A stretch of DNA of 31,903 bases from the IMG/VR virus record IMGVR_UViG_3300045977_000087; one strand, 5' to 3'. Both the position numbers and the translations under genes were made by a program. The notes below the pieces were generated by a model. It worked only from the letters and a program-made list of their open reading frames with translations. It did not search any database and had not been told where the DNA came from. Origin of the DNA: a virus. Lineage: Duplodnaviria; Heunggongvirae; Uroviricota; Caudoviricetes. Positions 1 through 31,903 of this stretch are shown piece by piece (positions within the stretch are counted from its first letter, which is position 1; each line of letters opens with the position of its first letter).

Positions 1-3000
1 CTTAGCTAAGTTCTCAAGGTTATCATACTTACCAAAAGCCTCTGTAGCTGACTTACCTAAGTCCTTAGTATTAATCAATGACTGCACTTTACTCATCTTC
101 TTAGCTGCTGCTCTAAGTTCAAGGAACAGGTTCAAAGCTGCAAGCTGTACATCCTTTTGAGTTCCATTAGTTTGAAGGCCAGCTATCAAAGCTTCACCAG
201 TAAGCAACTCACTGGTTATCTCTTCTTTACCAGTTTCACTATATTTTTTACGAAGATTCTCTATAGTAGTTTCCTCAAGGTTAGAGGTGAAGTCAGAGAT
301 GATACCCATACCTGACTGCATATGTTCCACAAACTCTCTTATCACAGGTTGTGATAGCAGGGCATAGGATATAGAAATGTCTTTGAATATTGGTTTACCA
401 TACTCATCCTTTTCTCCTGTATCATACTTAACCTTATCAAAGCCAAGTCCTGCAAGTAAGCTATCTACACCAATAGTAAGGGAGTTGATATTTACCCTAC
501 CAAGGATTTGTTCTTTCTCATTATCTGTTGCAGTATTTTGTTTCTCTGCATAAACCTCAGCTATACTTCTGTCTCCAGGTACATCTCTGTGTTCAGTTAA
601 AGTTCTTTGTCCTCCAAGCATTCCATTAGAGTAGATTTTACCTATGGTAATCTCAAATTTTTCTGATGGCCCTTGTGGGTCTTCAGGGTTTTTTCTCTGA
701 AGATAAGAAGGAGTATCAAGTTGTTGAACTAAACCATGGAATGTAACATAGTTTGAGTACACCCCAATAGCCATCTTACCTGCTGCCCCCAATCCCATTT
801 TCTCTTTTTGATATTGGTCAGAAAGAATAGTAAAGTCCCAAGGAGTACCTTGAGAAGAATCTGTCATGCTTTCAATTAACTCAGCCTGTTCTCTGGCAAA
901 GTCCATACTCAATACCTTGTTTACTTTCTTCTGCATCTCATCAGAAGGGTTAGAGAATACAGCCTGATGTATCTTAATAAACTTGTTCTCAAGTACTTTC
1001 AGTTCTTTCTCTTTAAGCTTTCTTTTCAAGGACTGTGTTTTCTCAGCTAAAGACTCTCTTGAAGCTTTTACTTCTTCAAGTTCTTCTTCAGTAAACATAT
1101 CCTCAAGGCCATCATAGAAGTCCTTAAGCATTTTCTCAGGTACAGTTCTTTCCACTTTCTCAAGTGCCAAAGCATCCTGATACTCTTTACTGTTGACAAG
1201 TTTATCTATTTGCTTTCTTACTTTCTCAACATGGTAGTCAGTAAACTCTTCTATTCTACCCTCCTTAGTTACATGGTGGTTAAGCTGATAAGTATTTTCT
1301 TTATCCACGTCAAAGTCAAGACCTTTCTGTTTGGTAAAGTTCTTAGGCACTATCATCAAGTCTCCTGACTCAGGAGGAAGAATACCTGCTATCTCAATTA
1401 TTGACCCTGATACATGGGAAGATGTAGGGGTTCTGAATGAGAACATGCTGAACAGTTTAGGGTCTATCATATTTGGTTTAAGTTTCAAAGGCTTACCCTT
1501 CTCTTCTATAAGGTATTTATATTGCCCATCTACTTTCTCAAACAAGTTTATAAGAGTACCATCACTCTTTTTAAACTTAGATGGTACAAGAACCTGAGCC
1601 TTAGTAAACACTGGTTTACCATCCACATCTTCAGTAGATACAGCCCCAAGCTCTTCACCATTATAGTTGTCAAAGTAGATAATTCTTGAGGTATCTATAC
1701 CTGCTAAGTCTTCTTTAAACTTATATCCATGCTCAGAACCTGCTACAAAGCTGTTACCTGGGAACTTGTGGGCAAGAACCCTCTTAGTAATAATTGAGTT
1801 CAACATAGACTCAAATCTATTACTGTTAGCACTTAGCCATAGTGGCATTGTGAACTCATAGTATTTGTTCTTATTCTGTGCATCTGTAAGTTCTACAAGG
1901 TCAAGTGACTTAACATCCTGTATAGGATAGTCTCTTCCTATTGCCTCTTTCTTAAGTAACTCTTGCAGTTTATGCATATGGGCTCTGGTATCATAAGGAA
2001 CACCATTAGGGTCAAGGCCAAGCTCATCATAAAGCTGTGCTTTCTTAAGGTCTATAATATCACCAAAGGTTTTAGCAAACTCTTCATACAACTCTCTTCC
2101 ATTAAGGTCTTTATCCATCCAGTCCACTCTAAATCCAGGTAGGTCTATTACCCCATCACCAAATAGGATTTTAAACATCTGTGTACCCAAGGCTATTGCA
2201 GACTTGTCTTTGACAGGAATATCCTGCTGGTTTCTATAGTTGTTTCTGTCAAGCTCTAATGTGGCAGCACTCAAAGCTGCTTCATCTTCAAGTTCAGTAG
2301 GATTTAAAGGGTCAATAGGAGCTACACTTCCTCCCACTTTATTTGCTGTCATATAAGAAGCTCTCACCCCTTTTCCAGGATGTTTAGCCTCAAGTTTCTC
2401 CATAGTCTTTCTAAGGTTATCTAATTCTGTTCCCATAGTAAGCTGTGGGATTAGGGGATAAGTAGAAGACTTAATATAGATAGTTCTTGCAACATCCTGT
2501 GCAGTGTCTATGTTTTGTCCTGTGTACACTGGCTTTTGTGGTTGTAAAACCATAGCTAATTCTTCCCTTGTCAATAACATTGACTCAGGTATCTTATAAT
2601 TATCCCCTATTGCATTGGCTTCAAGTTCTTTTTGTTGCTTGATTTTATTCTGAATATTTTTAAGTTGTACTTCAGGAATTTTACCATATCCTCTCATTAC
2701 TCTTATATGTTCTGAAAGAGTGGTGTATTCCTGAGCATCAGTACTCTCTATATCAAAGTAGTCAGCTATATCTGGAAATGCTTTTGCAAGAGCTTTTCTT
2801 AAGTCTTTCTTTGCACTGCTATCCATATTTGGATAACCTGCTATAAGCTCAGCTACAGTCCCTTTGTCCTCACCAAGTATCTTTCTGCTTAAAGCTTCCT
2901 CACCATGGAATAGTCTAATCAGGTATTTAGAGTTAGCACTGATGTCTTTACTATCCTTAAGGTTAAGCTGAATATAGCTCTCATTATATGCCTCAGCCAT

Positions 3001-6000
3001 AGTAGTACCTGGAGTGGCAAGCAAAGCTAACCTCTTACCTATGTTCACACCTTGCTTCTGTGCAAATTCAATGTAGAATTCATCCCCTAACATATTGGCA
3101 GGGTCTGACCCTTCAGGAAAGTGTTTACTTTGGCTATATAAAGCTGGGTCACCAGCAAGCATTGCAAACATATCAGCATTGTGTAACATGCTGTTAATCA
3201 CAAAGTCATAGATTGCATACTGAAACTTAGCATCCATAGTTCCTTGTCCTGTAGCAAGATAGTCAGTATCAAAGTGATTAATTGCTTTGATATTACCAAG
3301 ACCCTTATCAACACTGGTTTCTCTGACAACAATCTTCTCTAAGGACTCAGCTTTCTTCTCAGCAAGGCTCATAATTACTTCCTGAATAGTCTTGTCTATT
3401 TCTTTTCTGAATACTTCTTCTACTTCCTCAACACTATACCCTTCCTTAAAGTAGGATATCATTCTTTCATCTTTCTCATCTTTAATATTGTTCAAAGCAG
3501 GAATCATGTTGAAGATTTGGGCTGCCTCATTGTAGCCAGAGATATCAGTACCAGTAGTTTCTTTTCTTTTACCTTCAGCAGTTTCTACTGTGCTTGTATA
3601 GTTGCTGTGGAACTTAGCAATCCTTTTCATCTCAGGAAGCACAAGCTTTTTATAAAGTAGGTTTTTAAGTCTGTCTTCAAAGCCATCAACCTTTTTTGTT
3701 TCTGCATTATAAATAAAGGCATTAGTAGCCTGAGCAAAGAAGTTGAATACTCCTGTAGAGAACATATAAGCCTGAGTCTTATCAGACATAGTAAATCCAA
3801 GCATAGAACCCATTCTCATATCAAACATTTCAAACTTACCAAGTTCACCTTGTTTCATATCCTGGAACATACCAAACTTAGTAATGTCATGGTCAAGACT
3901 GTTAAGCTCAGTGATGCTGGCATTAGTTCTTGTCTTAGCCATCTTCTCTGCAAGTGCTTCCAAGGAAAGGTGGCTTAGGCCAAACTTAGAAGCAAAGTTT
4001 TTTCCAAGTTCAGTATGTGTAAGCAACCCAAGAATAGTTGACTCACTGTTGAAACTTAGGCTCTGAAGAAGCTTAATAAATTTTTGGTCACCAAGAGCTG
4101 ACCTTTTCAAGTCATCAACTCTGTTTGTAGCAAAGCTTGGGTTAGTTGTACCTGATACATTCTTACCTGCTACTCTAAAGGATTTGTTAAATACTTTGGA
4201 TGTATATCTTGCCTCACCTTTTGCTAAGGCTTTATTAACATTGGATAAGTTTGTAAAAGGATTTCTTAAAGGGTTCTCAGTTAGATTAATCTCACCAGTT
4301 TCCTTAGTCACAGTTTTAAGCCAATCCACAAGGTGTTTTACAGGGCAATATGCACCTGTAAAGAACTCTTTCTCATAGTCCCTTCTTTCTCCATTACTGC
4401 TAAAACCATTGTCTTTTATCTCCTGCATATATCCAGGAGCCAAGTCAATACCAAAAGCTGCCAACCATTTTCTAACATCTTCAACCTCACTATCTCTTCC
4501 AGGGTTGTTGTTTACATTCCATCTATTGAATTCATTAAGGAGTTCTTGTGCTACCTCTTTATTTACATAGTAATCCCCTTCAGAAGCTTTAAGTAAAGGA
4601 CTTGTTCTTTGGTTTGATTTCCATGTATTGATTATGGCCTTAACCATCTCATTAGCATTGGCATCAAGTATCTGAAGACTGTGTGAAGGTTCTCCTGCAT
4701 TATCAGTCTTGCTATCCTTCATTACAAACTTCATACTTACAGCATGCTTTCTGTAGTTGGTAACAAATTGGTTTCTCATCATTTCATCTCCTTTGTCAAA
4801 TCTTTCTATAAGCTCTTCAACCCAAGGGTTATTTGGTTGCATTTCCTGAAGCTTAGCTTTCATGATATCATAGTTGGCTTCAATATATATTCCTGATGTG
4901 GATAGTAAACCATACACAGAGTCATATATTTCATTGAAGCTCATAAGCTTATTGAACTTAAGGAACCCTGTTACAGGTACAAACTCTTCTTTCTTTTCAC
5001 CATCTTTCTCTACTATCTGTTTAACCTTTACTGTAATACCAGACATCATTCTTCTTAGTCTGTATCCAGCTTTAAGTTTAGAACTCTCAGCTAGTGAAGC
5101 ATTGTCCTCATAGCTGAACAGTCTTTCAGATAAGTCAGTTTCCATCTCAGCCTGTTCCTCAGTTTCAGGTACTTCATCAGTAGCAATCTCCCCTTTTTTC
5201 TCTTTAAGTTCTGAAGTCTTTCTAACCTCAACAAGGGCTTTGTCAACAACACTTACTTCACCATTATACTTCTCTCCAAGGTGTGCCTGCAATGATGCAT
5301 CAGACCAATAAGCACTAATGTTGCCTAATATCTTAACTGCTCCTTGTACCATATTAAGAACTTCTTTCAGCTCTGGGGTAGGGTTTTGTTGATACTCTTG
5401 GGAAACTCTGGTATATGCAGTATCTATGGCTCTAGTTGTAGGAGCCATAATCTCTGCCTGAGATTTGATAATCTCTGCCCTAACTTCATTCAAGGTAGGA
5501 ACTCCTTTATCACTCTTACTTTCTATGAAGGCTCTTGCAGCCTCACTTACTGTCTTGATTAAGTCTTCCTCTTGTGCTACATTAAGACCAGGTACAAGCT
5601 GATAGATAGTCTTAAGTTCCTCAGTTCCTTTAAGAGTACCTGGCTGAAAATTCATGCCTTGTAATGTGGTAGCATTAAAACCAAGTTCTTTAAGCAGTTT
5701 CTTGGTTTCATCTATAAGTTTTTGAGGGTCTTCAATCTGATTCATTTCCTGAATCACTTCCTGTGCTGCTTGCTCAACTTTTTTAATATCAGCAGTTATT
5801 GGAGCAGGGGCAGCTTCTGCACCTGTCTTATAAGTAAATCTGATAGTAGGCTGTACTGATGTGATATACTCAGGCTTTTCTTCAGTCCCCACATTAAAGG
5901 AGATAATACCTGTGGTCAAAGTGCTCTTAACATAGTCAGAGTATTTAAGACCTGTGTTCACCACATTACCATTAGTATCTATGTGAGGCATAATAAGGTC

Positions 6001-16272: not shown

Positions 16273-19200
16273 TTACCTTTCTGAAGACTTTTCATCATGT
16301 TGTGAAAGATGGAAAGTAAGTTGTGTATTAGCAAAATTATCAAATATAAGTCTTACTGCCAAGTATTTATCCCTAAAGCTTTCAAGTTGTGTCCAATCTT
16401 TATTTGGGTCTATTGCATCAGGATTAACCACCTTATCATAATATTCCTCTCCTGGGCTAAGACCATAGTTATAATTAAACATAGGAACATTTAAATTTCC
16501 TCTAATGTCTCTGAAACTATTTATAGTCCAATTTCTTTCATTTCTGTCAATAATAATCTCACCATTTGAGTAGTCCCTATTCTTAACTTGGTCTAACATG
16601 TAGTTAACAGATACCTCAGCTTTAGGCATAAGCTTAAGTACTCCTGAGGTTTGTTGGGAGTTGTAGAACAGTGCACTATTAAAGGTTTGATTCATATCTA
16701 CACCATATCCATTAGTGGCTTCACTCTGAAACATTATTGAGTCTGTGAGCTTAGTCTGTACTGCACTGACATTATCAACATACTCAACTATGAATGGGTA
16801 AAGAACATTGTAGAAGGTCTGATACCAACCTGTTATATTATGTTTATAAAAGCCTATCAAACCATCTTTCCAAGACCAGAAAGCACCTTGTATATGGAAG
16901 TAGAATGAAGGCAGGTATGGGTGCCAGCTTCTCCACTCATTTCTTCTAAGAGAGAAACTCATAGTCCAACTTGAATTAGTAAGTGGTGGCACTACAGGTT
17001 CACCATCTTCATACTCATACTCAATAGTGTACTCAGTAACCTGAGTAGGTTTAACTGTTTCTTCAAAGTGTCCAGGTTCAACAAGCACTACAGTAGTACC
17101 TGTATTACAGGCTGCATAAGGAATATCCACTCCAGTAAGATTACCTGCTATAAAGGCACCTCCAGTTTTAGACCATGATAAGCTACCAGTTCTTATACAC
17201 AATAGAGTAGGTTCAACTTTTTCAACATGACTTACTCCTGCTGCCATTGGTACACTGTAACTGTATGTATTACCTGAACACAGTACCATACTTATGGTTA
17301 TATTCTGAGACTGAGTAGTATCATTTCTTGTAAAGGAATAGTGTATCTCAACCTGAGTACAATCAATAGGGGAAGCATACTGCTCATATACAGGAGGAAC
17401 CCAGGTTGTGACAGGGATATCTTTAGTAACAACAGTTTGTGTTACTTTCTTAAACTTCATTCTACAGTTTTCATAACCTACAAAAGTCCATCCTTGACTA
17501 TTTCTTTCCCATATAATTCCAAAGGCATTCTCAAATCTGTATGTAGTATTTGTATCTGTACAATAATCTTCAGGAACTCCTGTATAATTAGGTGATATAT
17601 CTTTCTTAGTGATTATCAGTCTTTCCTTCTCAGTATCAAAGGTAGATATGTAACCAACTCCAAGATAGTTAGAAGGGTTATCCTGTTTTGAATAGTCATC
17701 TCCCATTCTAAACTTCATATTATTGTCAAACCATATCCTATTACCATTATCTGAGATAGGCTGAAGCTGTTCACCATTAAACAAGTACCATTTCTTCTCT
17801 CTGTGAGAAGGGAAGAGAACACCATATTTGGTCTTGGTTCTACCCCATTTATGTTGGGTCCCTGCACTTGAGTTCTCATCATCCACTATCTTTCTTGGAG
17901 GGATATTGAAAAGCTCTCCTGTACCAATGAAAGAAACTATACCTTCAGCAGTAGTTCTTTCCTGGAAGTTCTGTGGACACATCCATAAAGCTTCCTCAGT
18001 ATGTATGAACAGGTTATTCTTGATTTTAAATATGTCAACAATATCACCTGTTTCCCCAGCTAAATCTCTGTAGTTATTAGGTAGGAAGGTTCTGTAGTTA
18101 TCAGTAAGCTCTTCTTGGAATGAGGTCTGAGACCAATGCCATCTGTGAGTAAATACTTCAAGACATTCTGAACAGCAATCATATTCTATAGGAAGATGAT
18201 TGAATACTTTCTGCTTGTTTCTTCTCTCATAGTCAGGGTTGATTTCATATATCTCAGCTAAGGCCACACCCATATACTCCTTACCTTGTTTGTTTTCCTG
18301 TTTAGGATAGGTAAGCTTTTTAACCATGTGGCTATCAAAAGATGTTGTAGGGTCTATGGTTTCTACAGTTTGTCTGTTATTACCAAAGTAAAGCCAGTTC
18401 CCTTCAGGAACAAGTGTCCCTGGTTCCTTAATAGTAGGGGAACTTAGAAAGTCAGGGATACCATCTATAACTGATATCCTTGTACCTATGTTTACATTGG
18501 ATTCAAACCAAAGGTTTGCACAATCTCCTAACCATTGTATCTCATCATCAGCAGGGTTTTTGGAAAAACCTCTTTCTTCTTCTGTTGCAGGAAGTTCAAT
18601 ACCATATAGAGTGTACTGGTCTTGTATGGTTTTTCTAAGTCCTTTATCATAGTTTTCCTGATAAGCCTTAGCCCAAGCTACCTGACTAAGTCCTGATACA
18701 GCAAGAGATGTTGCTATACCTACAAGAAGAGATGCAGCACCTAAGGCAGCTATTAAGAGAGGAGTCCCAGCACCAAAGCTGAAGAAGGTAACCACAGCAG
18801 CAGCAATAACCAGGAATGTAGCAGCAACAAATTTCCATACTGATGTACCAGCTACTCTTTCTTTGAACCTGTTATCATACCACATACTATTCACATATCT
18901 TATAGGTGAGATGTAACTGTCACCATTGAATAGTTCTAAGGAGGAGACATTGTTCTCACTGAAATAAGTGGGGTTCTTACTGTCCTTGTAGTAAGGAGTA
19001 GTTCTAAAGTTAGCATAAGGGTTGAGGTTATCCCTCATTAGATACACATAAGGATACCTGTTATAAGGGTCGTATATAGGGGCATCTTCTGTAAAGGTTA
19101 TCATCCCTATTTTATTGTCTGCAACATTGTTATAATAATCAACACCAACACCTTCATTATCATTAATGGCCTTATCCTCAAGAGCATTAAGATAGAATAT

Positions 19201-21756
19201 CTCTTTTGTTATAGGTGTAAGGTCAAACTCAGCACCAGGTTGAAGATAGCTATTTGAGAAGGCAGTAATACCCTCTCTTGTCTTAATATGAAGTGTCATA
19301 CCATCTTCATCCTTTTCACTGTCTTTGTGTTTACCTTTTACATAACTGGTAACACCAGGTATTACATCATTGATTTTAGTTCTACTTTTAATTCTCTCTT
19401 TTATCTCAAATCTTCCCTGTTCAATAATATGGCTAAACTGCTCATAGTTCTTTTGTTTAAACTTATGCTCAGGGTATAGAAGCCCTGCAGAATCTTTCTT
19501 AATTGCAGTAGAGGGGTCAGCAAACTCTGGGTTAAGTAACCCTTGTGATATGAAAGGACTAAATACAACATTAGGGAGCAGTACAGCACTGTCAAGTACA
19601 GTCCTGTCAGGTTCTGTTCTCTCATTTCTTACTATGTAGTATCCAATAATTTTCTTTCCTCCTGTTTCCTCAGGAAGAGGAAGAAGGATATTTGAGAACT
19701 TAAATCCAAAGATATTGGCAACATAAGTACTTTCTTCAAGTTCTCTGCTATCAGCTACTATATCTAATGAATAGGTAACACCTGTCTCTGGGGATTGTAC
19801 AGAGAAGTCATATCCAGTCACAGTAGCAACAATAGGAAGTGGAGTGTTATTAGCTGCAGTATTACCATTACCATCCTTCTCAAATATCTCTGCACTAAGA
19901 AGTTCTATGGCTCCAGTTATTGGTCTTGAGAAAGAGTCAATAACTATTGTTGAAGGTACATCTTCAGGTACACTTTCATTAGAACTTATAGCCCATTTAT
20001 TAGGGTCAAATGAAAATATCTCTTCTTCTACAGACTGTATCCAACCTCTGGTATGTCTATATCTTACTACAAGACTAAATGTGTCATAACCATAAGAGAT
20101 ACAGTCAGAAGTGTATCCATACTGTCCTGGCTCAGGACACTTTGCAGGAATAACTAACTTTCCTTTTAATGGTACAGGAGGGTTTGCAACAGCCTTAATC
20201 ATAAGGGAAGAAGGGATACTAAACTGCAACTTGATTAGTGCAACTGTACCTGAAATCTTAGCTTTTGGAAGCTCAGTTATAAATGGTATTCTATAAGTAG
20301 TTCTAAGAGGAAATCTGTGATGTCTTACTTTCTGTCCAGCAAGTGGATTACCTAAATAATCATTTCCCCAATAGCCATCAGGGTCACAAGTATCTCTCTC
20401 TGTATAGGAGGCATCAATACAGGTATTATTCTTTGCCATAGGATAAACATCATCCCCAACTGCATACTTTTCACTTTCAGCAGCAAGTGGGCTTTTACCT
20501 GGTATATGGTAAGTAGGGCTGAGTGTATTGTCTTCAAAGATATATACTATACCCATAGAGTAAATTTCACCTGGCATATACCCTGTTTCATCATGGTGAA
20601 TAGATGGGTTTCTACAATCTGCTCCTTCAAGGCTGCCTATATTTACCTGTCTGATTACAGCATCAGTCTTAATCTGACTTGCATATTTCTGTAGTTTACA
20701 GAAGTTAATGCCAGGACCTTCTACATTACCAAGTATAAGTTGATTCTCAGCCTGCTCTATACTCTGTGCTTTATCTATGATGTTATTGAACATCATGATT
20801 TCCTCTTGGATTCCCTCACTTTCAAAGTTACTGCCTGTGTATGTAAAAGTATCTACAGATGTAGGTATAGGGGCAGTGAACTTAGTTGCACTTACAAGCC
20901 CATTACCTGTGTTAGCTTCAGTGATAGCAAGCCTATAAAAAGGATATCCCTTATCTATAGATGCAATATTTAGGTCAAGTCTTACAGCTTTAGTAGTCAA
21001 AGCATTGGATAAATAGTCAGCTTTCTTCATAGTCCCACCTCTGATATCCTTATAATCTGAGGTTAAAGCTTTTGGATAGATTACCACAGGCTCTGTACTA
21101 AATACAAACTCAGTAGGATTGAAGTCCTCATCAAGGTATTGAAAAGAGAAGTTGTAACTGCCTGGGGCAAGTTGCCCTCCTTCTATGGCTTTAATGCTTT
21201 GTATCTCAGGTATTGATTTATATGTTTTGAAAAGATTGAATTTATCAATATTGAACCTATAGTTTTCATCCCTGTAACTCATTGGGTCATCAATATTCAT
21301 GGTTCTTGGCTTAGGGTCAACCCAATATATAGTTCTTTCACATCCTCTTCTGAGTCTGAAAGTAGCATCAATTTGATGATTAACATTAAAGCCAAGCTTT
21401 GCAGTCTGATTAGTATCATCTACAATAGGGCTAAAAGTTTCCCCTTTAACACTGGCTATCATAGAGTTACCTGCAGGGTCTGCAAGAAATAGCACTGTTT
21501 CACCATCACCAACATAGACTTTTCCAAGAGGTACAAAATCAGTTTGCCCATCAGGAAGCATAAACCAAAGTTGATTGGCACTCTCATTAGAGATTCTACC
21601 TTGACTTCCTTCCTCAGTTTCATCTACACCACAGAGTACATATCTTGTAGTTCCTGGAGGCTGATTAGCTGGGTCAGAATCAGTATGAATCCCACCTGCA
21701 GTATTCAAGGGCATGCCTTGCCCTTGTTGTCTTTCTTCTTGATTATCTTTAGCCAT
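16273..21756 (-). CDS. Muzzle / tail stabilisation protein (P22 gp10-like, crAss 'Tstab'), 1827 aa, with several insertions
   Basis: Motifs FRLRRGCERTIYWVD, YMPGEIYSMGIVY, RHHRFP...FKFSNI..P...GYYIVR, DNYRTFLPNNYRDL and W.SWHPYLP. Size and position between the tail tubular and cargo genes fit the assignment. Confidence 0.75.
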   Translation of the reverse strand: MAKDNQEERQQGQGMPLNTAGGIHTDSDPANQPPGTTRYVLCGVDETEEGSQGRISNESANQLWFMLPDGQTDFVPLGKVYVGDGETVLFLADPAGNSMIASVKGETFSPIVDDTNQTAKLGFNVNHQIDATFRLRRGCERTIYWVDPKPRTMNIDDPMSYRDENYRFNIDKFNLFKTYKSIPEIQSIKAIEGGQLAPGSYNFSFQYLDEDFNPTEFVFSTEPVVIYPKALTSDYKDIRGGTMKKADYLSNALTTKAVRLDLNIASIDKGYPFYRLAITEANTGNGLVSATKFTAPIPTSVDTFTYTGSNFESEGIQEEIMMFNNIIDKAQSIEQAENQLILGNVEGPGINFCKLQKYASQIKTDAVIRQVNIGSLEGADCRNPSIHHDETGYMPGEIYSMGIVYIFEDNTLSPTYHIPGKSPLAAESEKYAVGDDVYPMAKNNTCIDASYTERDTCDPDGYWGNDYLGNPLAGQKVRHHRFPLRTTYRIPFITELPKAKISGTVALIKLQFSIPSSLMIKAVANPPVPLKGKLVIPAKCPEPGQYGYTSDCISYGYDTFSLVVRYRHTRGWIQSVEEEIFSFDPNKWAISSNESVPEDVPSTIVIDSFSRPITGAIELLSAEIFEKDGNGNTAANNTPLPIVATVTGYDFSVQSPETGVTYSLDIVADSRELEESTYVANIFGFKFSNILLPLPEETGGKKIIGYYIVRNERTEPDRTVLDSAVLLPNVVFSPFISQGLLNPEFADPSTAIKKDSAGLLYPEHKFKQKNYEQFSHIIEQGRFEIKERIKSRTKINDVIPGVTSYVKGKHKDSEKDEDGMTLHIKTREGITAFSNSYLQPGAEFDLTPITKEIFYLNALEDKAINDNEGVGVDYYNNVADNKIGMITFTEDAPIYDPYNRYPYVYLMRDNLNPYANFRTTPYYKDSKNPTYFSENNVSSLELFNGDSYISPIRYVNSMWYDNRFKERVAGTSVWKFVAATFLVIAAAVVTFFSFGAGTPLLIAALGAASLLVGIATSLAVSGLSQVAWAKAYQENYDKGLRKTIQDQYTLYGIELPATEEERGFSKNPADDEIQWLGDCANLWFESNVNIGTRISVIDGIPDFLSSPTIKEPGTLVPEGNWLYFGNNRQTVETIDPTTSFDSHMVKKLTYPKQENKQGKEYMGVALAEIYEINPDYERRNKQKVFNHLPIEYDCCSECLEVFTHRWHWSQTSFQEELTDNYRTFLPNNYRDLAGETGDIVDIFKIKNNLFIHTEEALWMCPQNFQERTTAEGIVSFIGTGELFNIPPRKIVDDENSSAGTQHKWGRTKTKYGVLFPSHREKKWYLFNGEQLQPISDNGNRIWFDNNMKFRMGDDYSKQDNPSNYLGVGYISTFDTEKERLIITKKDISPNYTGVPEDYCTDTNTTYRFENAFGIIWERNSQGWTFVGYENCRMKFKKVTQTVVTKDIPVTTWVPPVYEQYASPIDCTQVEIHYSFTRNDTTQSQNITISMVLCSGNTYSYSVPMAAGVSHVEKVEPTLLCIRTGSLSWSKTGGAFIAGNLTGVDIPYAACNTGTTVVLVEPGHFEETVKPTQVTEYTIEYEYEDGEPVVPPLTNSSWTMSFSLRRNEWRSWHPYLPSFYFHIQGAFWSWKDGLIGFYKHNITGWYQTFYNVLYPFIVEYVDNVSAVQTKLTDSIMFQSEATNGYGVDMNQTFNSALFYNSQQTSGVLKLMPKAEVSVNYMLDQVKNRDYSNGEIIIDRNERNWTINSFRDIRGNLNVPMFNYNYGLSPGEEYYDKVVNPDAIDPNKDWTQLESFRDKYLAVRLIFDNFANTQLTFHLSQHDEKSSER

Positions 21757-21761
21757 GGCTA

Positions 21762-22781
21762 TTAAATTTTATATGGTATGTATCCAGGATTACCTGTGTA
21801 TCCTGCAAATCCATATCTGTTAGTCAAATTAGGGTCATTGAATACCTTATCTTCAGGGTAGGCTAACTTACCAAAGTAGCCATAGTATCTCTTCTGATTA
21901 GGAAGCAGGTAGAGTGATTGGTCTTTAAGGTTCTGATATTCATCAATACCTGAAGGCATTTTAGCTTTATTCTTGAATTGTTTTACATACTTAAGCCAGT
22001 GTTGTTCAGCAAGTTGAGCAAGCTGCATAGCTCCCTCTCTGTGGTTCCAACCCTCTCTTTCCTTAAGCTTCCATCCTAAGTAGTAAGTGATGGCAGCAAT
22101 ACAAGCTGAATCATCAGGAATCATAGGGTAACCTGTAGCTGGGTCTGTTACCTGTCTTAGGTAAGCAAGGGCTACAAAACCATTCTCAAAGCTGAATCTT
22201 AAGTGGTCAGCTACAACTGTATATTCATCCCTGCTTGTAGTATATAGTCCATCTGCTTGAGGAAGATTACATACAAGGGTATTAAAGAAGCTATGATTAG
22301 CAAGTCTCACAGGAGTAAATCTCTTACTTCCCCTGAGATAGCTGTACCAAAGTGAGAACTCCCACTTCAAATCATAGTAGGGTCTGTAATAAACTATGTC
22401 ATAATCTCCAAGAATCCTTCCCTGACAATCTGCTACCACTACTGGAGCTGCATCCCCACAATCTATACAAGGGTTGTAAGTAGGTGGGTTAATCTCCTCA
22501 AGTACTTTAACAGGGGAGCAGGGCTCAAGGAATGTAGGGTCCCATTGATTATCTCTTGCAATCTGGAGAATATATTGAAGACCATTAGGAAGTTGGGCAT
22601 GATATCCTTTAACTTCAAGGAATGCCACAGCTTCTTCAGATACATTGGCAATCTGCATAAAGCCTAAAGCCTCTCCTATCCATTCTATGGCCTCATCATC
22701 ATTGATGTTTAAGCCCTTGAAATCCCTTAGGAATTTGGCTAAGATAGTATCTACAGTTACAAAATTAAATCTCTGTTTCAT
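21762..22781 (-). CDS. Tail ring / tail tubular protein (P22 gp4-like, crAss 'Ttub'), 339 aa
   Basis: N-terminal ILAKFLRDF...EAIEWIGEALGF...FLEV...AQLP and C-terminal GYPMIPDD...AAITYY signatures. It is immediately upstream of the muzzle gene. Confidence 0.7.
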   Translation of the reverse strand: MKQRFNFVTVDTILAKFLRDFKGLNINDDEAIEWIGEALGFMQIANVSEEAVAFLEVKGYHAQLPNGLQYILQIARDNQWDPTFLEPCSPVKVLEEINPPTYNPCIDCGDAAPVVVADCQGRILGDYDIVYYRPYYDLKWEFSLWYSYLRGSKRFTPVRLANHSFFNTLVCNLPQADGLYTTSRDEYTVVADHLRFSFENGFVALAYLRQVTDPATGYPMIPDDSACIAAITYYLGWKLKEREGWNHREGAMQLAQLAEQHWLKYVKQFKNKAKMPSGIDEYQNLKDQSLYLLPNQKRYYGYFGKLAYPEDKVFNDPNLTNRYGFAGYTGNPGYIPYKI

Positions 22782-23578: not shown

Positions 23579-23664
23579 TTCTTTCTTCTTTTGTCATCAT
23601 GGGATAAGAACCATATAACTATGTATAAACCAAGTGTTATAACTATTATCTTAAGTGTGGTCAT
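23575..23664 (-). CDS. 29-aa single-pass membrane microprotein MTTLKIIVITLGLYIVIWFLSHDDKRRKK (below the ORF-track cutoff)
   Basis: Exactly fills the gap between two genes, with a TAATG overlap at its start (23664) and an ATGA overlap at its stop (23575-23578). It has a 15-residue hydrophobic core followed by a KRRKK tail. Confidence 0.75.
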   Translation of the reverse strand: MTTLKIIVITLGLYIVIWFLSHDDKRRKK

Positions 23665-24356
23665 TATCCTTGTTGTTGTTGTTCTTCTTGTTGTTGAGGT
23701 GCTCTACCTGCTACCCCAGCTTTAAACTCTGTAATTAGCTCCTCTTTACACATGGCAATAAGTGGTTCAATAAGATGCCCATCTATAGGGAAGTCAAAAT
23801 CCCCAGCATAAGTGCAGCTGGTGCAAGCTCCTTCACAGCATGAAGGATATAAATATGCCTCAACAGGGTCTTCAGGCAGCATTCTTATTTTCACTACCTT
23901 TGGGGTATGTGGAGATTTAAAGTAAAGATGCCTGTTCTCATATACATACTTATTGTTCTTGCCTGTGTATTTATTGCCATTGGCATAGATTGTCTCTTGC
24001 CTAGAGGCTTCCTCAATCTTGACCCTATTATCTAAGCTCATGACATACTGAATCATGGTCTTATCAGCACCTACCATAGGCTTAGGGATAGGATATTTTG
24101 TTCTCCATACCTCACAACCTAAGTCAACAAAACAAGGACAATCTGCCTCAGGAACCTTGATTAGTTCCACACAAGGCAGAGTAACATAGTTATCTTCCCC
24201 AATTTTGTTTTTACTCTTGGCCTGTCTATGTACTAAGAAGTTCCTCACTGTCAGCATTTTGTTATATACATGTCTATCTGCAAGTGGGGTTTTGTCAGTG
24301 CCAATGCCTTGTTCAAAGAGGGCTACTATCCTGTCTATGATGGTTTTTATTTTCAT
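23664..24356 (-). CDS. Tail ring protein (crAss ring-protein family), 230 aa, with a polyQ C-terminal tail
   Basis: LADRHVY...R.FL...TLPCVELIKV...CPC...C...RTKYPIPK and DFPID..LI are motifs I recognise from crAss-like ring proteins. ATGA overlap with the nuclease gene. Confidence 0.6.
   Translation of the reverse strand: MKIKTIIDRIVALFEQGIGTDKTPLADRHVYNKMLTVRNFLVHRQAKSKNKIGEDNYVTLPCVELIKVPEADCPCFVDLGCEVWRTKYPIPKPMVGADKTMIQYVMSLDNRVKIEEASRQETIYANGNKYTGKNNKYVYENRHLYFKSPHTPKVVKIRMLPEDPVEAYLYPSCCEGACTSCTYAGDFDFPIDGHLIEPLIAMCKEELITEFKAGVAGRAPQQQEEQQQQG
23670..23696 (-). repeat. (CAA)n/(GAA)n triplet tract encoding QQQEEQQQQ
   Basis: The minus strand reads CAA CAA CAA GAA GAA CAA CAA CAA CAA immediately before GGA TAA. 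Confidence 0.85.
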
Positions 24357-25057
24357 CTCATCTGTGTTTTAAGTCTATCAGTAAAATCACGAGTATCTAT
24401 CACAGAGTACTCACCATTCATTAATAACCATATTACTATTCTTCTGCTTATCTTAATGCCAGGTATCTGCTCAAGCAGTATCTGGTAGTAACTAAGCTGT
24501 ACCTCATAGTGGCTTAAAGGGCAGTCAAGTAAGTCCTCAAAAGGAGGCAACATAGTCTTACCTTTAAAATTCTTGTACAAGTCCTTGTTGGTCTTATAGT
24601 CAGCTATGATATAAGTCCCATTAAGCATGTTGTACAAGAGTATATCTGATGTACCTGCAAACTTCTTGATGTAATGGTACATTCTAATCTCAGCTCCTAC
24701 TGGCACTATGTAAGGAGGAAGGTCAGCCCAGAACTTAGTCAATGCAAGCTCTTGATTACAGCTTGGAGTCAGGGTTCTGTCATCCTGATATCTTTCTCCA
24801 AAGAGGTGAACTCTATGTCCTCTCTCTATGGATTCATCATTGATATCCTTCCATTCCTTTAGTACTTCTGCCTGTGTTCTCCCATCTCTTTCAGCAATCC
24901 TTGCTGAATGATAGTCACTATCAAAGGGTTCATAAAAAGAATGGATAAGGCTTGAAACAGACTTCTCTATTTTAACCCCATCCACTGTATATTTATGCCC
25001 CTTCTCCTGAAAGGTCAAACCCTTAAATGCTTCCTGTATTTTATGTAGTATATTCAT
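24353..25057 (-). CDS. PD-(D/E)xK (RecB-family) nuclease, 234 aa
   Basis: H.Y...SVS (N-terminus), RGHRVH, EIRMY, FAGTSDILL (motif II), IADYKT (motif III) and YEVQLSYY (QxxxY). It lacks the four-Cys Fe-S set of Cas4. Confidence 0.85.
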   Translation of the reverse strand: MNILHKIQEAFKGLTFQEKGHKYTVDGVKIEKSVSSLIHSFYEPFDSDYHSARIAERDGRTQAEVLKEWKDINDESIERGHRVHLFGERYQDDRTLTPSCNQELALTKFWADLPPYIVPVGAEIRMYHYIKKFAGTSDILLYNMLNGTYIIADYKTNKDLYKNFKGKTMLPPFEDLLDCPLSHYEVQLSYYQILLEQIPGIKISRRIVIWLLMNGEYSVIDTRDFTDRLKTQMR

Positions 25058-25074: not shown

Positions 25075-25437
25075 TTAAAGGGACTTTAGAAACTCTTGCT
25101 TCCTTTCCTCAAACTCAGGTTCATGTACTGATTTAATACAATGGTTCCTTTCAAGTCTTTCTAAAAACCTTACTACCTTATATCCTTTATCAGTTAGTGT
25201 ACCAAGGATTTGGTTCTTACCAAGGCAACAAGAGGTAGTCTCTTCACCTCCAAAATCACACCCACAATCTGGCAATTTCAAATGTTTATTAAAGAAGTCT
25301 TTATAGTACTTGTTTAATGATATGCTTGCTAAGACTCCTTTGTACTTAAAATACTCTATCCTCCCTGTTAGAAGAAAGTTAACTACTGAAATAGGGAAGG
25401 AAAAGATACATACTATTATGAACACAAGGAAGTCCAT
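25075..25437 (-). CDS. Small membrane-anchored Cys-rich protein, 120 aa
   Basis: N-terminal hydrophobic helix FLVFIIVCIFSFPISVVNFLL. The C-terminal GGEETTSCCLGKNQ..GTLT.KG......LE.NHC matches a G..DETISS.LGK...NHC pattern I recall from uncharacterised phage proteins. Confidence 0.7.
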   Translation of the reverse strand: MDFLVFIIVCIFSFPISVVNFLLTGRIEYFKYKGVLASISLNKYYKDFFNKHLKLPDCGCDFGGEETTSCCLGKNQILGTLTDKGYKVVRFLERLERNHCIKSVHEPEFEERKQEFLKSL

Positions 25438-25448
25438 CTTCCATAAAA

Positions 25449-26492
25449 TTACATTATTCGCATCACATTATTTGAGCCAAAATTAGCCACATATATTTTA
25501 TCATTAGCAGTATAAACTAAATCTTGTGGATTAGTTCCTACAGTTGAATAGATTGCAGCTGTGGCTCCTGCTATATCACATTCATATACACTATTATTTC
25601 CAGTACAGGTAACATAAAGTTTAGTAGCAGCTCTATTTACAGCTATTGCAGTACCTCCTGCCCCAACTGTTATCCAGTTATAAGTAAAGGTTCCTCCTGA
25701 AGTGATGTTAGCTATACTATTATTACCTGGGCTGAGTATATAAGACCTGGCTGCACTATCCACACATATATCAATAGGTCCAGAGAGAACAGCTGTTGTA
25801 GTACTTACACCTGCTGTTGACGTATTTATTTTAGATATAGTATTCTTAGGGGTATTAGCTGAGTAAATATAACCACCACTATCAGCACATAATCCTGTTG
25901 GATTTGCTGTAGCAGTTAGGGTAACCCATGATAGAGTTAATGTACCCCCTGATGTTATTCTACTGATAGTAGTACCACCTGTGTTAGCTACATAGATATT
26001 AGCACCATCAGGACTTGTAACTATCCCTTTAGGGTTATTCATTCCTGTAGCAAATGTTTGAGTAAGTACACCTGCAGCAGTTATCCTAGAAACAGTTCCA
26101 TTAGTGTTTGCAACATAAACAGTTCCACCATTAGTAGGTACAACACATATAGCCTGTGGAGATGTAGTTAAAGTAATCCATGGATTAGTTACTACACCAG
26201 CATTGGTTATCTTAGTGATAGTGTTATTAGATTTACATGCAACATATACAGTACCATCCAAATCTGCACATATAGCCTGTGGTCCTGTACCTGTAGTATA
26301 TGTAGGTCTGTGTACATAACCATACCAATCACTTAAATAAAAAGGTCCACTTGGATATTGTATCCTTGGCTTTGAACCAGCTAATGCCAACCCAGCTAAA
26401 GTTTTTAGTGATGAGTCAGCTGCATTAGCAGCTCTCCCCATCTCTACATTTATGTCACTGATGTCTATGACACCACTACTTGGTAAGGCCAT
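25449..26492 (-). CDS. Putative tail-fibre tip adhesin: N-terminal attachment domain plus 7-bladed NHL/YVTN-like beta-propeller, 347 aa
   Basis: The N-terminus MALPSSGVIDISDINVEMG...PFYLSDWYGY is followed by seven P.(A/G)I.....YVAN..N.T(I/V)S.I repeats. It overlaps the stop of the S74-containing fibre gene by 17 nt. Confidence 0.7.
   Translation of the reverse strand: MALPSSGVIDISDINVEMGRAANAADSSLKTLAGLALAGSKPRIQYPSGPFYLSDWYGYVHRPTYTTGTGPQAICADLDGTVYVACKSNNTITKITNAGVVTNPWITLTTSPQAICVVPTNGGTVYVANTNGTVSRITAAGVLTQTFATGMNNPKGIVTSPDGANIYVANTGGTTISRITSGGTLTLSWVTLTATANPTGLCADSGGYIYSANTPKNTISKINTSTAGVSTTTAVLSGPIDICVDSAARSYILSPGNNSIANITSGGTFTYNWITVGAGGTAIAVNRAATKLYVTCTGNNSVYECDIAGATAAIYSTVGTNPQDLVYTANDKIYVANFGSNNVMRIM
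25452..26290 (-). repeat. Seven ~40-aa beta-propeller blade repeats
   Basis: GPQAICADLDGTVYVACKSNNTITKI; SPQAICVV..GGTVYVANTNGTVSRI; NPKGIVTSPDGANIYVANTGGTTISRI; NPTGLCADSGGYIYSANTPKNTISKI; GPIDICVDSAARSYILSPGNNSIANI; GGTAIAVNRAATKLYVTCTGNNSVYEC; NPQDLVYTANDKIYVANFGSNNVMRI. Confidence 0.85.
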
Positions 26493-28569: not shown

Positions 28570-28582
28570 CAGCTCTTAGTTA

Positions 28583-30277
28583 TTATTTCTTAATCACTAC
28601 TCTATATTGTGCTGTAGTAGGTGCTGAGTTGAATGATACAGTTACAACATTCACAGAAGTTCTAACAATTTGTGCTTCCATCTCCTCACCTGTAGAGTTC
28701 TCATATAGGGTAACACTAACATCCTTGGTATTAAGGTTATGTGTAACAGCAATTGAAGTAGCTGAGTTATCCCCAATATCTTGGGCATATCCACCAACTC
28801 TTGTATCAAGCAGTGTTTTTAATGTTAGAGGAGATACTACATATGGATTATGTAGGGCACCAGCATTAACCTCAGCTTGAGTTGCAAATTCTACCTTACC
28901 TCTTATTGTCTCATCAGCATCAGGTGTTTGTCCTGGTACTACTGATAAGACATAAGTCTTCATTTTAAGAGGGGTAACTGCTCTAAAGTCATCAGTACCT
29001 GCAGTACACTCTGCTTGAGTAGCTAACTCTACAATACCTAATGTTGTTTCAGTAGCTTGTATTGGCAGTTTTGCAGCAAAGGCTTGTGCTAACTTTAATG
29101 GAGATACAATTCTTGAGTCATCTGTACCTGTAGTTACCTCAGCTTGGGTTGCTATCTCAGCAGTACCTTGTACTGTTTCTGAAGCTAATCTAAAGTCTAA
29201 GTAAGTTTTTAATTTTAGTGGGGTAATAACATAGTATTGGTCTAAGGTACCACCATTAGTTTCAGTCTGAGTTGCTATTTCAACATACCCTGTTTGTGTT
29301 TCTGAAGCTAAGTCTATATTCTTTTGAGCAATAGTCCAGTGTGCAAGTGTGGTAGGAGCATCTTGATTTGCTATAATCACATCACCTATTCTAACCTGTT
29401 CAGTAAAGAAGACACCATCAGCAGTAACTGTGTACATCCAACCATTTTTGATGGCTAGTGGACCAGGGTTACCTTCCAAGGCAGGTACATCAGTAGCAGC
29501 ATTATAGCCACCCTTGTTAATAAGTCCTCCTGTAATAGCTGAGGTAATATTATTCAATTCAGTCTGAATCTTTTGAGAAGACCAACCCTGAAGGGTACTG
29601 TTATTAATGGAATCATTAAATGGTTGAGACCATGCTGCAGTAGTAGCACCTGTAGCTCTCAACACCATCCCATTTGCTAAGCCTGCCTGAGCTGATAAGT
29701 CAAGTAGATTAACTTCTGCTGCTGTTGCAAGCACATCTGTAGCACCTGTAGCTAATAGGTGAGTATGTCCAGAGGTAGCTGCACCAATATCCCCAGGAGT
29801 TAAGGACCTTGTAGCAAAGGCTGTAACGTGTCCTTCTGTAGTAGTGGTAACATTGCTGATGACTACTGCTCCTGTTAATGCTGAACCTCCATTCAATATG
29901 TTTCCAGGTGCAAAAGGACCAGGGTGAATATACTTGTTAGCATCAGGTGCTCCAATATATCCAAGGTCAGCTAATGTCATAGCTCTTGTAGTTGCTGAGG
30001 TAACGTGTCCTTCAGCATTGGTTACTAAGGTAGCTAATACATTGGCCCCTGTTAAGTTAGGGTTTAATGCACCAGGTACAGCATGTGTATAGTATCTACC
30101 TAAATCTAGCCAAACAGACCCAGTCCATACATAGGAAGTACTGTCTGCAGTATTCCAATATATCCAACCAGGTTGCTTACCAGCTGTAGCAGGATGTGCT
30201 GCTAAGTTCTGTAAGCTTGCATTTGTTAGTTGATTATTCAGTAAGTTTATATCAACTAAAAATTTCTTATTTGCCAT
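28583..30277 (-). CDS. Tail fibre protein with four T4 gp34/gp12-like repeats and a C-terminal THNL domain, 564 aa
   Basis: N-terminal KFLVDINLLNNQLTNASLQNL, two GHVT repeats, a KGGYNAAT...GD.II...W domain, four ASET..G.VEIATQAE..GTDD...TPLKL repeats, and a C-terminal AVTHNLNTKDVSVTLY. Confidence 0.8.
   Translation of the reverse strand: MANKKFLVDINLLNNQLTNASLQNLAAHPATAGKQPGWIYWNTADSTSYVWTGSVWLDLGRYYTHAVPGALNPNLTGANVLATLVTNAEGHVTSATTRAMTLADLGYIGAPDANKYIHPGPFAPGNILNGGSALTGAVVISNVTTTTEGHVTAFATRSLTPGDIGAATSGHTHLLATGATDVLATAAEVNLLDLSAQAGLANGMVLRATGATTAAWSQPFNDSINNSTLQGWSSQKIQTELNNITSAITGGLINKGGYNAATDVPALEGNPGPLAIKNGWMYTVTADGVFFTEQVRIGDVIIANQDAPTTLAHWTIAQKNIDLASETQTGYVEIATQTETNGGTLDQYYVITPLKLKTYLDFRLASETVQGTAEIATQAEVTTGTDDSRIVSPLKLAQAFAAKLPIQATETTLGIVELATQAECTAGTDDFRAVTPLKMKTYVLSVVPGQTPDADETIRGKVEFATQAEVNAGALHNPYVVSPLTLKTLLDTRVGGYAQDIGDNSATSIAVTHNLNTKDVSVTLYENSTGEEMEAQIVRTSVNVVTVSFNSAPTTAQYRVVIKK
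28808..29308 (-). repeat. Four T4 gp34-like fibre repeats
   Basis: ASETQTGYVEIATQTETNGGT..TPLKLK; ASETVQGTAEIATQAEVTTGTDD..SPLKLA; ATETTLGIVELATQAECTAGTDD..TPLKMK; ADETIRGKVEFATQAEVNAG..SPLTLK. Confidence 0.85.
29783..30091 (-). repeat. Two YxH...LTGA.V......EGHVT..TR.(L/M)T..D(L/I)G repeats
   Basis: Protein-level repeat with an identical 14-nt core gtaacgtgtccttc at 29823-29836 and 30000-30013. Confidence 0.8.
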
Positions 30278-30298
30278 TTCTTATAGTTTTAGTGGTTA

Positions 30299-30730
30299 TT
30301 AATTCAGTGTTGCCACACCTGAAAACCCTGCTGAAAATGTTATTGTTAGTTGATTAACTGATATATGAATTACTTCACCTTCAACCTCTGTTCCTGCTGT
30401 ATCCTTTACAGTCACACTTGGGTACTTATTTAAGTTATGTGTTATAGTCCATACAGAAGCTGATACACCTTGGTCATGAATATAGTTCTTATCCCCTAAG
30501 GCAGCATCTACTTTTGGCACTAAGTGGGCATCTAATATGCCATCTTTAAACCAATACTCAACTCCTGCCACATTTACTGTTAATCCTTGGTGTCTAATAC
30601 CACTAGTTATCTCAGACAAAACCTGTGCTACATTTGTATATGGAGTATTGGCATTGTTGAAATACTTAGTAATCTCAGGTGCTGGGTTCAGTACCTTTAG
30701 TCCACCAGGAAGTTGAATAGTTGCACCCAT
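30299..30730 (-). CDS. Small virion appendage/fibre-associated protein with a C-terminal HNL domain, 143 aa
   Basis: The C-terminal WTITHNLNKYPSVTVKDTAG.EV.GEV...QLTITFSAGFSGVATLN is of the same type as the C-terminal domain of the downstream fibre gene. Confidence 0.65.
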   Translation of the reverse strand: MGATIQLPGGLKVLNPAPEITKYFNNANTPYTNVAQVLSEITSGIRHQGLTVNVAGVEYWFKDGILDAHLVPKVDAALGDKNYIHDQGVSASVWTITHNLNKYPSVTVKDTAGTEVEGEVIHISVNQLTITFSAGFSGVATLN

Positions 30731-30731
30731 G

Positions 30732-31901
30732 TTATGATGTTGTTATTGCGTGTCCTGTACTCACTGAGTATGGTGCACCCAAGGTTAGTGTATATTGATT
30801 ACAAGCTCTGTCAGTTCCTCCTGCATCTTTAACTGTAATAGCAGAGAGGATATAGTTAGCTGTTATATCTGCATTTAAATTACCTGTGTCTATCACCTTA
30901 GTGATAGTTACACCTGGTGGTAAAATTACAACAAAATTCCTATATGTAGTGCCTGTTGTAAGGGTAAAGTTGTTGGCACCACTTGTTTTGAAAGCAGTAC
31001 TTCCAAGCCCTTGAGCATAAGTTCTGTTAGCAGTACCATCATTAGGATTTGATGGCAGTGTTCCTGTAGGCCCCCAATATCTATTGAAGAGTGCTGTAAC
31101 TACAAAGTTATTACTGTTCACATTGGGGCCAGTACTGTTATTGGCTATACCTCTCCAAGACTGTGTAGCACCTGTAAAGTTTAGCTGTGTTGTGGTAATG
31201 GTTGCAGATTGTGTACCATCATTAGGAGTACCTGCCAAGAGTGTAGTACCTGTTGTAACATTGAAGATATCTATTGTACCTATCACACCACTATTCTGGT
31301 TAATGCTCCAGCTGAATATCTTACCTCCTGACAGTGTGGTTCCCACCTCTACTGTAGTAGGCTGTCCTGAAATAGAGAAGGAAGCAAAAGCAGGGTTCAC
31401 ATACTCAAGGGCAATATCAGCAATTACTTGCTGAGCAGTTTTGCCTATGGCAGGAATAGTTTGTCCTGTGGTGTACTTACCCAGAGTCTTACCTCCAGAG
31501 AGTACCACAGGTATATCTGCATCAAAGACACTATTCATTGGAGGTAGTTGGGATAGAGGAACCTTACCTGCACTATCTAAGCCAGCATATCCAAAAGGAA
31601 GTCCTTTATTATTCCAATTCTCTTTTGTTTGGAACTCAGCCATTAAATCAGCTTGGTCCTCCATGTTACCATCAATTTCCCCCCAAGTTGCCTGAGCATC
31701 AATATCCCAAGTTCTGTTTTGAGAAAGGTCTTGTGTTGTTCCATTGATAGTAATTCTTCTATCAGGTGGCACATAATTTCCATCTTCTTCCCATGCAGTA
31801 AAGACAGGGTCTTGCTCTTCATATCCCTGACCAGGATAGATGTCATTTATATATTGTGATAGCTTAGTAGGTTTGTTTCTGATATAAGCTCTTCCTTTAG
31901 G
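30732..31901 (-). CDS. Tail fibre / structural protein, 5'-truncated by the window edge (at least 389 aa)
   Basis: The ORF-track start at 31772 is an internal GTG. The frame stays open to 31901 (PKGRAYIRNKPTKLSQYINDIY...). Fibre motifs YIRNKPTKLSQ, RRITINGTTQDLSQNRTW, ATWGEIDG, GYAGLDSAGKVPLSQLP are followed by Thr-rich beta domains. Confidence 0.75.
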   Translation of the reverse strand, partial: PKGRAYIRNKPTKLSQYINDIYPGQGYEEQDPVFTAWEEDGNYVPPDRRITINGTTQDLSQNRTWDIDAQATWGEIDGNMEDQADLMAEFQTKENWNNKGLPFGYAGLDSAGKVPLSQLPPMNSVFDADIPVVLSGGKTLGKYTTGQTIPAIGKTAQQVIADIALEYVNPAFASFSISGQPTTVEVGTTLSGGKIFSWSINQNSGVIGTIDIFNVTTGTTLLAGTPNDGTQSATITTTQLNFTGATQSWRGIANNSTGPNVNSNNFVVTALFNRYWGPTGTLPSNPNDGTANRTYAQGLGSTAFKTSGANNFTLTTGTTYRNFVVILPPGVTITKVIDTGNLNADITANYILSAITVKDAGGTDRACNQYTLTLGAPYSVSTGHAITTS

Positions 31902-31903
31902 GG

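Follow-up and report, generated by a model that had tools for sequence, protein, structure and literature searches.

The 31,903-nt stretch analysed here, IMG/VR virus record IMGVR_UViG_3300045977_000087 (the window, always meaning this whole stretch), has lost nearly all copies of the CG dinucleotide. Genes, all of them on the minus strand, cover 98 % of it (ORFs, open reading frames, were called heuristically). The window is the module of tail, cargo and virion RNA polymerase genes of a crAss-like phage from soil that has not been cultured. The signature proteins of the Crassvirales, namely the muzzle protein and tail ring proteins 1 and 2 (PF25731, E 7e-34; PF24228, E 4e-48; PF25702, E 5e-30) and a giant ORF of more than 4054 aa, were all found (Table 1). 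Tail ring protein 1 was used as the query for relatives and as the basis of the tree. The nearest cultured relatives are the FpV4-type phages of Flavobacterium psychrophilum (approximately 90 kb, 53 % ring-protein identity), and uncultured IMG/VR contigs share 59–62 % ring-protein identity with the window. The phage branches next to the FpV4-like (Fipvunavirus) Flavobacterium phages. A megablast search of the window against phages gave no match.

An exact count found 9 CGs in the window, where approximately 1170 are expected at a G+C content of 38.6 % (observed/expected ratio, O/E, 0.008; expectations are zero-order unless stated otherwise). The GC, GG and CC dinucleotides have O/E values of 1.04–1.2. 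An earlier model-made note on the letters of this DNA (the sequence-only reading) had reported about 9 CGs in 31.9 kb; all nine of its positions are identical to those in Table 1, and the count brought up no extra ones. The coding preferences it described were likewise seen, with Arg encoded by 296 AGA, 61 AGG and 3 CGN codons, and a single NCG codon in total. CG is also avoided across codon junctions, as it had claimed. Codons ending in C make up 0.1 % of those before a G-initial codon versus 15–29 % before other bases, and only 5 junction CGs were observed, whereas 200 synonymous shuffles, in which every protein and the codon usage of each gene were preserved, gave 426±14 (minimum 390). Codon bias therefore cannot account for the loss, CG being under-represented relative to a null that preserves both codons and proteins. 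The phage was found in at least 6 soil metagenome runs, and the window sequence was reproduced by contigs from 4 other soil metagenome runs, with 5 single-nucleotide polymorphisms (SNPs) in 19.9 kb, none of which creates a CG. The scarcity of CG is genuine, and is neither an effect of codon usage nor an assembly artefact.

Table 1. Features of the window and the positions of all CG dinucleotides
Feature	Position	Strand	Assignment or remark	CG dinucleotides
Whole window	1..31903		CG reduced to 9 copies, O/E 0.008	9
Giant ORF, >4054 aa	1..12162	-	Predicted crass-type virion RNA polymerase/cargo protein; extends past the window edge	2: 251 (CGT Arg codon), 1308 (GAC-GTG junction)
Muzzle protein gene	16273..21756	-	PF25731, PF25729	1: 19071 (TAC-GAC junction)
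Tail ring protein 1 gene	21762..22781	-	PF24228	0
Tail ring protein 2 gene	23664..24356	-	PF25702	0
Nuclease gene	24353..25057	-	Lambda-Exo/RecB-type PD-(D/E)XK nuclease	1: 24390 (CGT Arg)
Tail protein gene	25449..26492	-	NHL/beta-propeller	2: 25459 (CGA Arg), 25821 (ACG Thr)
Tail gene with internal repeat	28583..30277	-	Repeat ..EGHVT..	2: 29827, 30004 (both CAC-GTT junctions)
Gene with the last CG in its 3′ end	30732..31772	-		1: 30749 (CAC-GCA junction)

The CGs at 29827, 30004 and 30749 lie in the same 7-base motif, each at a His(CAC)-G junction, and the first two belong to the internal protein repeat of one tail gene and are 59 codons apart. The family of FpV4 gp32 homologues, to which the giant ORF belongs, has a CG O/E of 0.013. 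The sequence-only reading had also held that the survivors are not a random set. This stood for the window and its nearest clade, where ACGN dominates, but FpV4 retains mainly NCGA. Some other words are scarce in the coding sequence of the window when the CG purge is allowed for, namely CTAG (14 versus 86 expected), AATT (99 versus 192), CCAG/CTGG (185 versus 291) and AAAA/TTTT (384 versus 580). There is no avoidance of GGCC or AGCT.

We also note that, at 28579–29261, the distal part of the tail gene with the internal repeat is swapped for other sequence in 3–4 other soil samples. The replacement was seen as joints and loose ends, one variant end having TCGA, and it looks like the swapping of a receptor-binding module within one phage population.

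The loss of CG is not confined to the window. Among the 24 loci of the FpV4-related clade, 20 have a CG O/E of 0.02–0.09. The whole FpV4 genome contains 106 CGs in 88 kb (O/E 0.065), and three further phages of the FpV4 group (FPSV genomes) have values of 0.08–0.09. For the complete uncultured relatives G001, G002, G003 and G005 the value is 0.03–0.045, with 0.077 for G010 and 0.137 for G009. Across the complete genomes of relatives (approximately 90–100 kb) depletion is 25–130 fold, leaving 85–150 residual CGs per genome. The purge in the window module is the deepest of those measured here (0.008), and its G+C content is higher than that of FpV4 or of Bacteroides phage crAss001, which is considered below. 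The weakly purged members of the clade are G006 (0.39), G007 (0.23) and L013/14 (0.16–0.20). In the ring-protein tree, the purged state is found on the basal branches, in the window, in a 12-member clade and in the FpV4 group, and the weakly purged members are nested among these, which makes them secondary relaxations. The purge is a heritable, genome-wide trait of the whole clade.

All 10 strand-symmetric NCGN contexts are depleted, to approximately 0.00–0.13, the non-palindromic ones to the same degree as the palindromic ones. The target is therefore the bare CG dinucleotide rather than a set of classical palindromes. In the relatives, O/E is 0.02–0.05 in core genes, accessory genes are depleted 10–25 fold, and non-coding DNA is depleted 4–15 fold (O/E 0.07–0.25). 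As non-coding DNA is purged too, selection must act at the level of the nucleic acid and not of translation.

A second purged lineage is that of Bacteroides phage crAss001 (Kehishuvirus, GenBank accession number MH675552), which contains 87 CGs in 102.7 kb (O/E 0.028). When 80 crass-like contigs were surveyed by their terminase, genomes like it (TerL identity at least 78 %) ranged from 0.03 to 0.2. Its next relatives (TerL identity 55–60 %) have values of 0.9–1.13, including G148, G150 and G151 at 1.0–1.13, and its family-mate phi14:2 has 0.46. In the remainder of the survey, another branch has values of 0.17–0.22 and most others 0.45–0.8. The purge is thus patchy and recurrent within the Crassvirales and not a property of the order. 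The crAss001 lineage is separated from the clade of the window by non-purged lineages and reached the purge independently. The sequence-only reading could not know that the trait extends over a whole clade and turns up again in crAss001. Our literature searches brought up no account of CpG depletion in phages of Flavobacterium or in crass-like phages, crAss001 included.

Equal depletion of the host chromosome, which the sequence-only reading had named as part of an outcome that would remove the case for a specific system, was not found in host-class chromosomes. The O/E was 0.50–1.56 in 17 chromosomal samples from Flavobacteriia (20 kb each, five Flavobacterium species among them) and 0.72–0.90 in seven from Bacteroidia, and mimicry of the host was rejected because these chromosomes are CG-normal. 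Phages of other kinds do not show the purge either. Two unrelated phages of the F. psychrophilum strain on which FpV4 grows, Fpv6 and the temperate phage 6H, have values of 1.56 and 0.96, respectively, and other phages of Flavobacteriia have values of 0.25–0.96. The bias of Fpv6 (GenBank accession number KU599881) is opposite to that of FpV4, with TA at 0.48 alongside its CG excess. Fpv6 has 139 CCGG sites versus 27 expected, a five-fold excess, despite CCGG being the main restriction site of the host, and no CGCG versus 27 expected. It must be protected by some other means.

Gains and losses of CG were compared using synonymous transitions. In the FpV4 group (four phages 2–2.7 % apart, polarised by majority), CG-creating changes were found at 4 of 4410 sites versus 219 of 13171 in other contexts (ratio 0.055, p 1e-22), so that 4 gains were observed where approximately 73 were expected. 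CG-destroying changes were found at 11 of 46 sites versus 140 of 1630, or 2.8 times as often per site. As this rate of loss is modest, new CGs would be visible had they arisen and persisted normally. The same deficit was seen in the crAss001 group (22 contigs; 19 of 483 CG-creating versus 344 of 1089 control changes, ratio 0.125, p 1.5e-40) and in the triplets G002/G003/G005, where CG gains occurred at 10 of 1657 sites versus approximately 0.18 per site in other contexts. The purge is maintained by ongoing purifying selection against new CGs and not by decay of methyl-cytosine. From the gain deficit, the standard mutation-selection-drift formula gives an estimated scaled selection coefficient of approximately -4. 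The sequence-only reading had left open whether selection or mutation was at work; the gain deficits of 8–18 fold bear out selection, and the alternative falls, the existing CGs not being hypermutable. The window population, with only 5 SNPs, is too invariant for a test of this kind, and the genomes of the non-purged Fpv6 group, all at least 99.9 % identical, are too close to serve as a control.

The comparison of the weakly purged G006 with its purged relatives indicates how CG was removed. Amino acid divergence is equal at CG codons and at other codons (0.456 versus 0.452 in one comparison and 0.509 versus 0.505 in another), and recoding has therefore been purely synonymous. Arg content is near-constant and CGT to AGA is the commonest replacement, a change of which deamination cannot be the source. 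The route was the use of AGR for Arg, the abandonment of NCG codons and the use of NNT or NNA in place of NNC before G-initial codons. The least purged of the large core genes is the major capsid gene (O/E 0.156 versus 0.01–0.03 in tail and polymerase genes), in which CGT accounts for 24 of 140 Arg codons (72 of 6937 elsewhere) and codons with a final C are retained before G. Here, selection for optimal codons (CGT and NNC) partly overrides the avoidance of CG. Since the translationally optimal CGT persists in this gene, a CG must carry a weak and additive cost, of a size similar to codon selection in the most highly expressed gene.

The selective agent that we favour, at a little under an even chance, is a host-side reader of CG-containing words that acts at the DNA level, the words being either unmodified or methylated. 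One or more defence activities in the dense restriction repertoires of the Bacteroidota would read CG-containing words, either as they stand or after cytosine methylation by the host, and phages lacking a DNA methyltransferase would respond by avoiding the word, as they also do with GATC and CTAG. An external agent is favoured by the fact that no gene family tracks the purge. Profile searches detected no C5, N4/N6 or Dam-type DNA methyltransferase in either purged or normal crassviruses. C5-methyltransferases were found in 11 of the 17 host genomes, and components of Type IV systems are common in Flavobacterium species (Mrr-type domain in 42 of 81, McrC in 20 of 81). Strains of F. psychrophilum have approximately 10 restriction-modification systems each, and 17 strains together have 55 methyltransferases. 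HpaII-like (CCGG) and ScrFI-like (CCNGG) systems are the main barriers, and CGCG and GCSGC systems are present as well (PMC11837570). FpV4 has no CCGG, CGCG, CCSGG, GATC or GCSGC sites. This comparison is with the restriction list of F. psychrophilum, the host of FpV4, which may not be the host of the window phage.

Several observations weigh against a host reader. FpV4 retains 58 CCWGG sites versus 22 expected, which is the CG-free half of the second most prevalent target of its host, and the known CG-containing sites of F. psychrophilum are exclusively S-flanked, but WCGW contexts are equally purged. Fpv6, rich in CCGG, and 6H share the F. psychrophilum host strain of FpV4, and both are CG-normal. 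Taken together, the CCWGG retained in FpV4 and the CCGG-rich Fpv6 indicate that the purge follows the dinucleotide and not the known restriction list, and a host agent would need to be met by some other countermeasure in Fpv6 and 6H. Sister crassviruses with normal CG also lack a methyltransferase. Self-methylation as the alternative strategy of these phages was rejected for this reason, and avoidance and self-methylation are not simple alternatives. The host chromosomes are rich in CG and carry no sign of decay through CG methylation. To our knowledge, no bacterial enzyme reads bare CG. In the gain and loss tests, the genomes were relatives of one another and changes were polarised by majority rule. 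A host nuclease or sensor with a CG target, in the general form proposed by the sequence-only reading, fits badly with the two phages of the same strain, and host CG methylation, which it had also proposed, found no support in the host-class chromosomes, as they are not CG-depleted.

GATC is lost in some of the same phages. It is absent from the window (72 expected from the shuffle), from FpV4 and from G009, and present once in crAss001 and twice in G010. However, G001–G006 have normal numbers (80–179), which makes the GATC purge independent of that of CG. A prevalent orphan methylase of F. psychrophilum modifies cytosine in GATC, with no nuclease known (PMC11837570). With only a methylase known, the loss of GATC may mean that the phage avoids methylation rather than cutting. 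Avoidance of a CRISPR protospacer-adjacent motif (PAM) as the cause of the CG purge was rejected because the flank found for F. psychrophilum contains no CG. In phage 6H, 11 of 12 protospacers of published F. psychrophilum spacers have the flank ATAYY (RRTAT on the other strand), in which ATA occupies -6 to -4 and two pyrimidines come next, implying that the PAM of a type II-C Cas9 is approximately N-RR-TAT on the other strand.

A broader version of the host reader would be a widespread, undescribed prokaryotic activity that reads bare, unmodified CpG in incoming DNA and exacts a small cost per site, from which several crassvirus lineages escaped by erasing CG. We regard this as rather unlikely.

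The agent could also lie on the side of the phage. An effector such as a nuclease, a nickase or a DNA-binding shut-off protein would act on CG in host DNA and spare the CG-free genome of the phage itself. This would explain why the trait belongs to phage lineages and not to hosts, and why phages of the same strain are unaffected. With host chromosomes that are CG-normal or CG-rich, CG would be a highly discriminating word, a weak additive cost per site would suit an inefficient or density-dependent effector, and many core genes have no assigned function. However, there is no gene family that every purged genome has and the relaxed G006 lacks, nor one that the two purged lineages share and five non-purged crassviruses lack. 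One family with the reverse pattern proved to be a fast-evolving domain of cargo protein 1 and a clustering artefact. The PD-(D/E)XK nuclease of the tail module was considered as a CG weapon and rejected, as it is a recombination-type exonuclease with motifs conserved in purged and relaxed relatives alike. The residual CGs of each purged genome would, moreover, stay as targets. Thus, neither gene-content profiling over the two origins nor the methyltransferase searches gave support to the phage-encoded CG-directed enzyme envisaged by the sequence-only reading, and we judge an effector of this kind improbable.

One lineage-specific island of approximately 8.5 kb (G006:46147-54612) contains genes for a T4-gp1-like deoxynucleoside monophosphate (dNMP) kinase and for a thymidylate synthase of the ThyA type that carries an insertion, along with several unknown genes. 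The dNMP kinase is the sole family common to the relaxed G006 and G007 and absent from all purged genomes, and G006 is unique in combining it with ThyA. ThyA itself seems to be a true thymidylate synthase. DNA hypermodification as the factor that relaxed the purge was rejected because neither PF00303 nor PF21448 follows CG content across 45 records, and it is at most a weak lead.

Replication offers another account, in which CG becomes costly, or its turnover biased, through a family-A DNA polymerase (PolA, PF00476) or through functions that are inherited alongside it. PolA was found in 12 of the 14 genome lineages with O/E below 0.25 versus 2 of the 11 above (Fisher p 0.001, uncorrected for phylogeny). 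It is present in crAss001 and not in three normal-CG sisters or phi14:2, and a different polymerase that replaces it is shared by G006 and the FpV4 group, the latter being the weakest of the purged (0.065–0.09). However, this group lacks PolA yet has the strongest measured selection against new CGs, and PolA is therefore not required. G155 and G156 have PolA at O/E 0.5–0.55, G007 has it and is relaxed, the independent contrasts are few and no mechanism is known. We give this account a small chance. The switch of DNA polymerase inside the clade is an observation in its own right. G001 (10002-11888), G002, G003, G005, G007, G009 and G010 have a divergent family-A enzyme, and FpV4 gp62 (L059:30159-32270) and G006 have a common polymerase of 703–718 aa that matched no Pfam family or PDB structure by sequence. 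A search with PF00136 missed the crass-type PolB annotated in phi14:2.

Selection could instead act on RNA, with a ribonuclease or RNA sensor that targets CG in phage transcripts in the manner of ZAP. Approximately 95 % of the genome is transcribed coding sequence, CG is self-complementary so that the strands are indistinguishable, and non-coding DNA is somewhat less purged. However, non-coding DNA is not spared, its depletion still being several-fold, and depletion does not appear to scale with presumed transcript abundance. The late transcript of highest abundance comes from the major capsid gene, the core gene with the weakest purge, and this speaks against an RNA-cleaving agent whose effect scales with abundance. 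We know of no CG-specific bacterial RNase, and the chance that we allow selection on RNA is slight.

Mutational decay, in which CG is methylated and lost through deamination of 5-methylcytosine as in vertebrates, could draw on the faster loss of CG relative to control C-to-T changes and on CA and TG in the window (O/E 1.28 and 1.09), but is already largely refuted and has next to no chance of being correct, since CGs were created 8–18 times more rarely than controls while existing CGs last, 5 junction CGs are conserved in all of G002, G003 and G005 (81–88 % identical), TG and CA in the relatives (approximately 1.0–1.1) lack the consistent excess that the sequence-only reading had proposed as a signature of deamination, CGT to AGA is the chief Arg replacement, the hosts are not CG-depleted, and no C5 methyltransferase (PF00145) was found in five complete relatives, crAss001 or phi14:2.

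When a phage avoids a word, a known restriction enzyme is usually taken to have left the footprint. In the present case the avoided word is a bare dinucleotide for which no reader is known; the footprint is deep, is under measurable ongoing selection and occurs in two distinct lineages of crassviruses with CpG-normal hosts. A reader of CG is directly testable because purged phages are in culture, namely FpV4 on F. psychrophilum and crAss001 on Bacteroides intestinalis. Genetic tools and restriction-deficient mutants of F. psychrophilum exist (PMC11837570). CG content is also a strong compositional marker of purged phages in metagenomes, and the purge may confound host prediction that is based on k-mer similarity. 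The engineering of phages against this fish pathogen may be affected too, since inserts rich in CG may be costly to phage fitness.

The closest comparison is with restriction-site avoidance in phages. In both, a short word is selectively scarce beyond codon and amino acid constraints in a phage that lacks a methyltransferase, and the purged genomes also include ones without GATC, avoid CTAG and have had the known host sites CCGG, CGCG and GCSGC removed. The differences are that the purged word is a bare dinucleotide in ten contexts, non-palindromic ones included, that no cognate enzyme is known, that the depletion is 25–130 fold over some 90–100 kb, and that CCWGG is not avoided.

Self/non-self discrimination by viruses is a looser parallel. 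T4 combines hydroxymethyl-C with C-specific nucleases, and chloroviruses use short-site nickases. A very short, systematic difference between the genomes could likewise restrict a virus enzyme to host DNA, but no candidate among enzymes and modification genes goes with the trait here and this is a resemblance only.

In vertebrate viruses, CpG is suppressed because ZAP senses CpG-rich RNA and, in small DNA viruses, through decay of 5-methylcytosine. This suppression resembles the phage purge in being specific to CpG, in going beyond codon usage and in being ascribed to a host reader of CpG. The phage depletion is 10–50 times deeper, concerns a double-stranded DNA phage of CpG-normal bacterial hosts, is weakest in the most expressed gene and bears no signature of deamination.

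The nearest counterparts of the window are FpV4 and crAss001. The window phage belongs to a separate, uncultured soil lineage (53–62 % ring-protein identity), but all three share the architecture of the virion module, the near-absence of GATC and the purge of CG.

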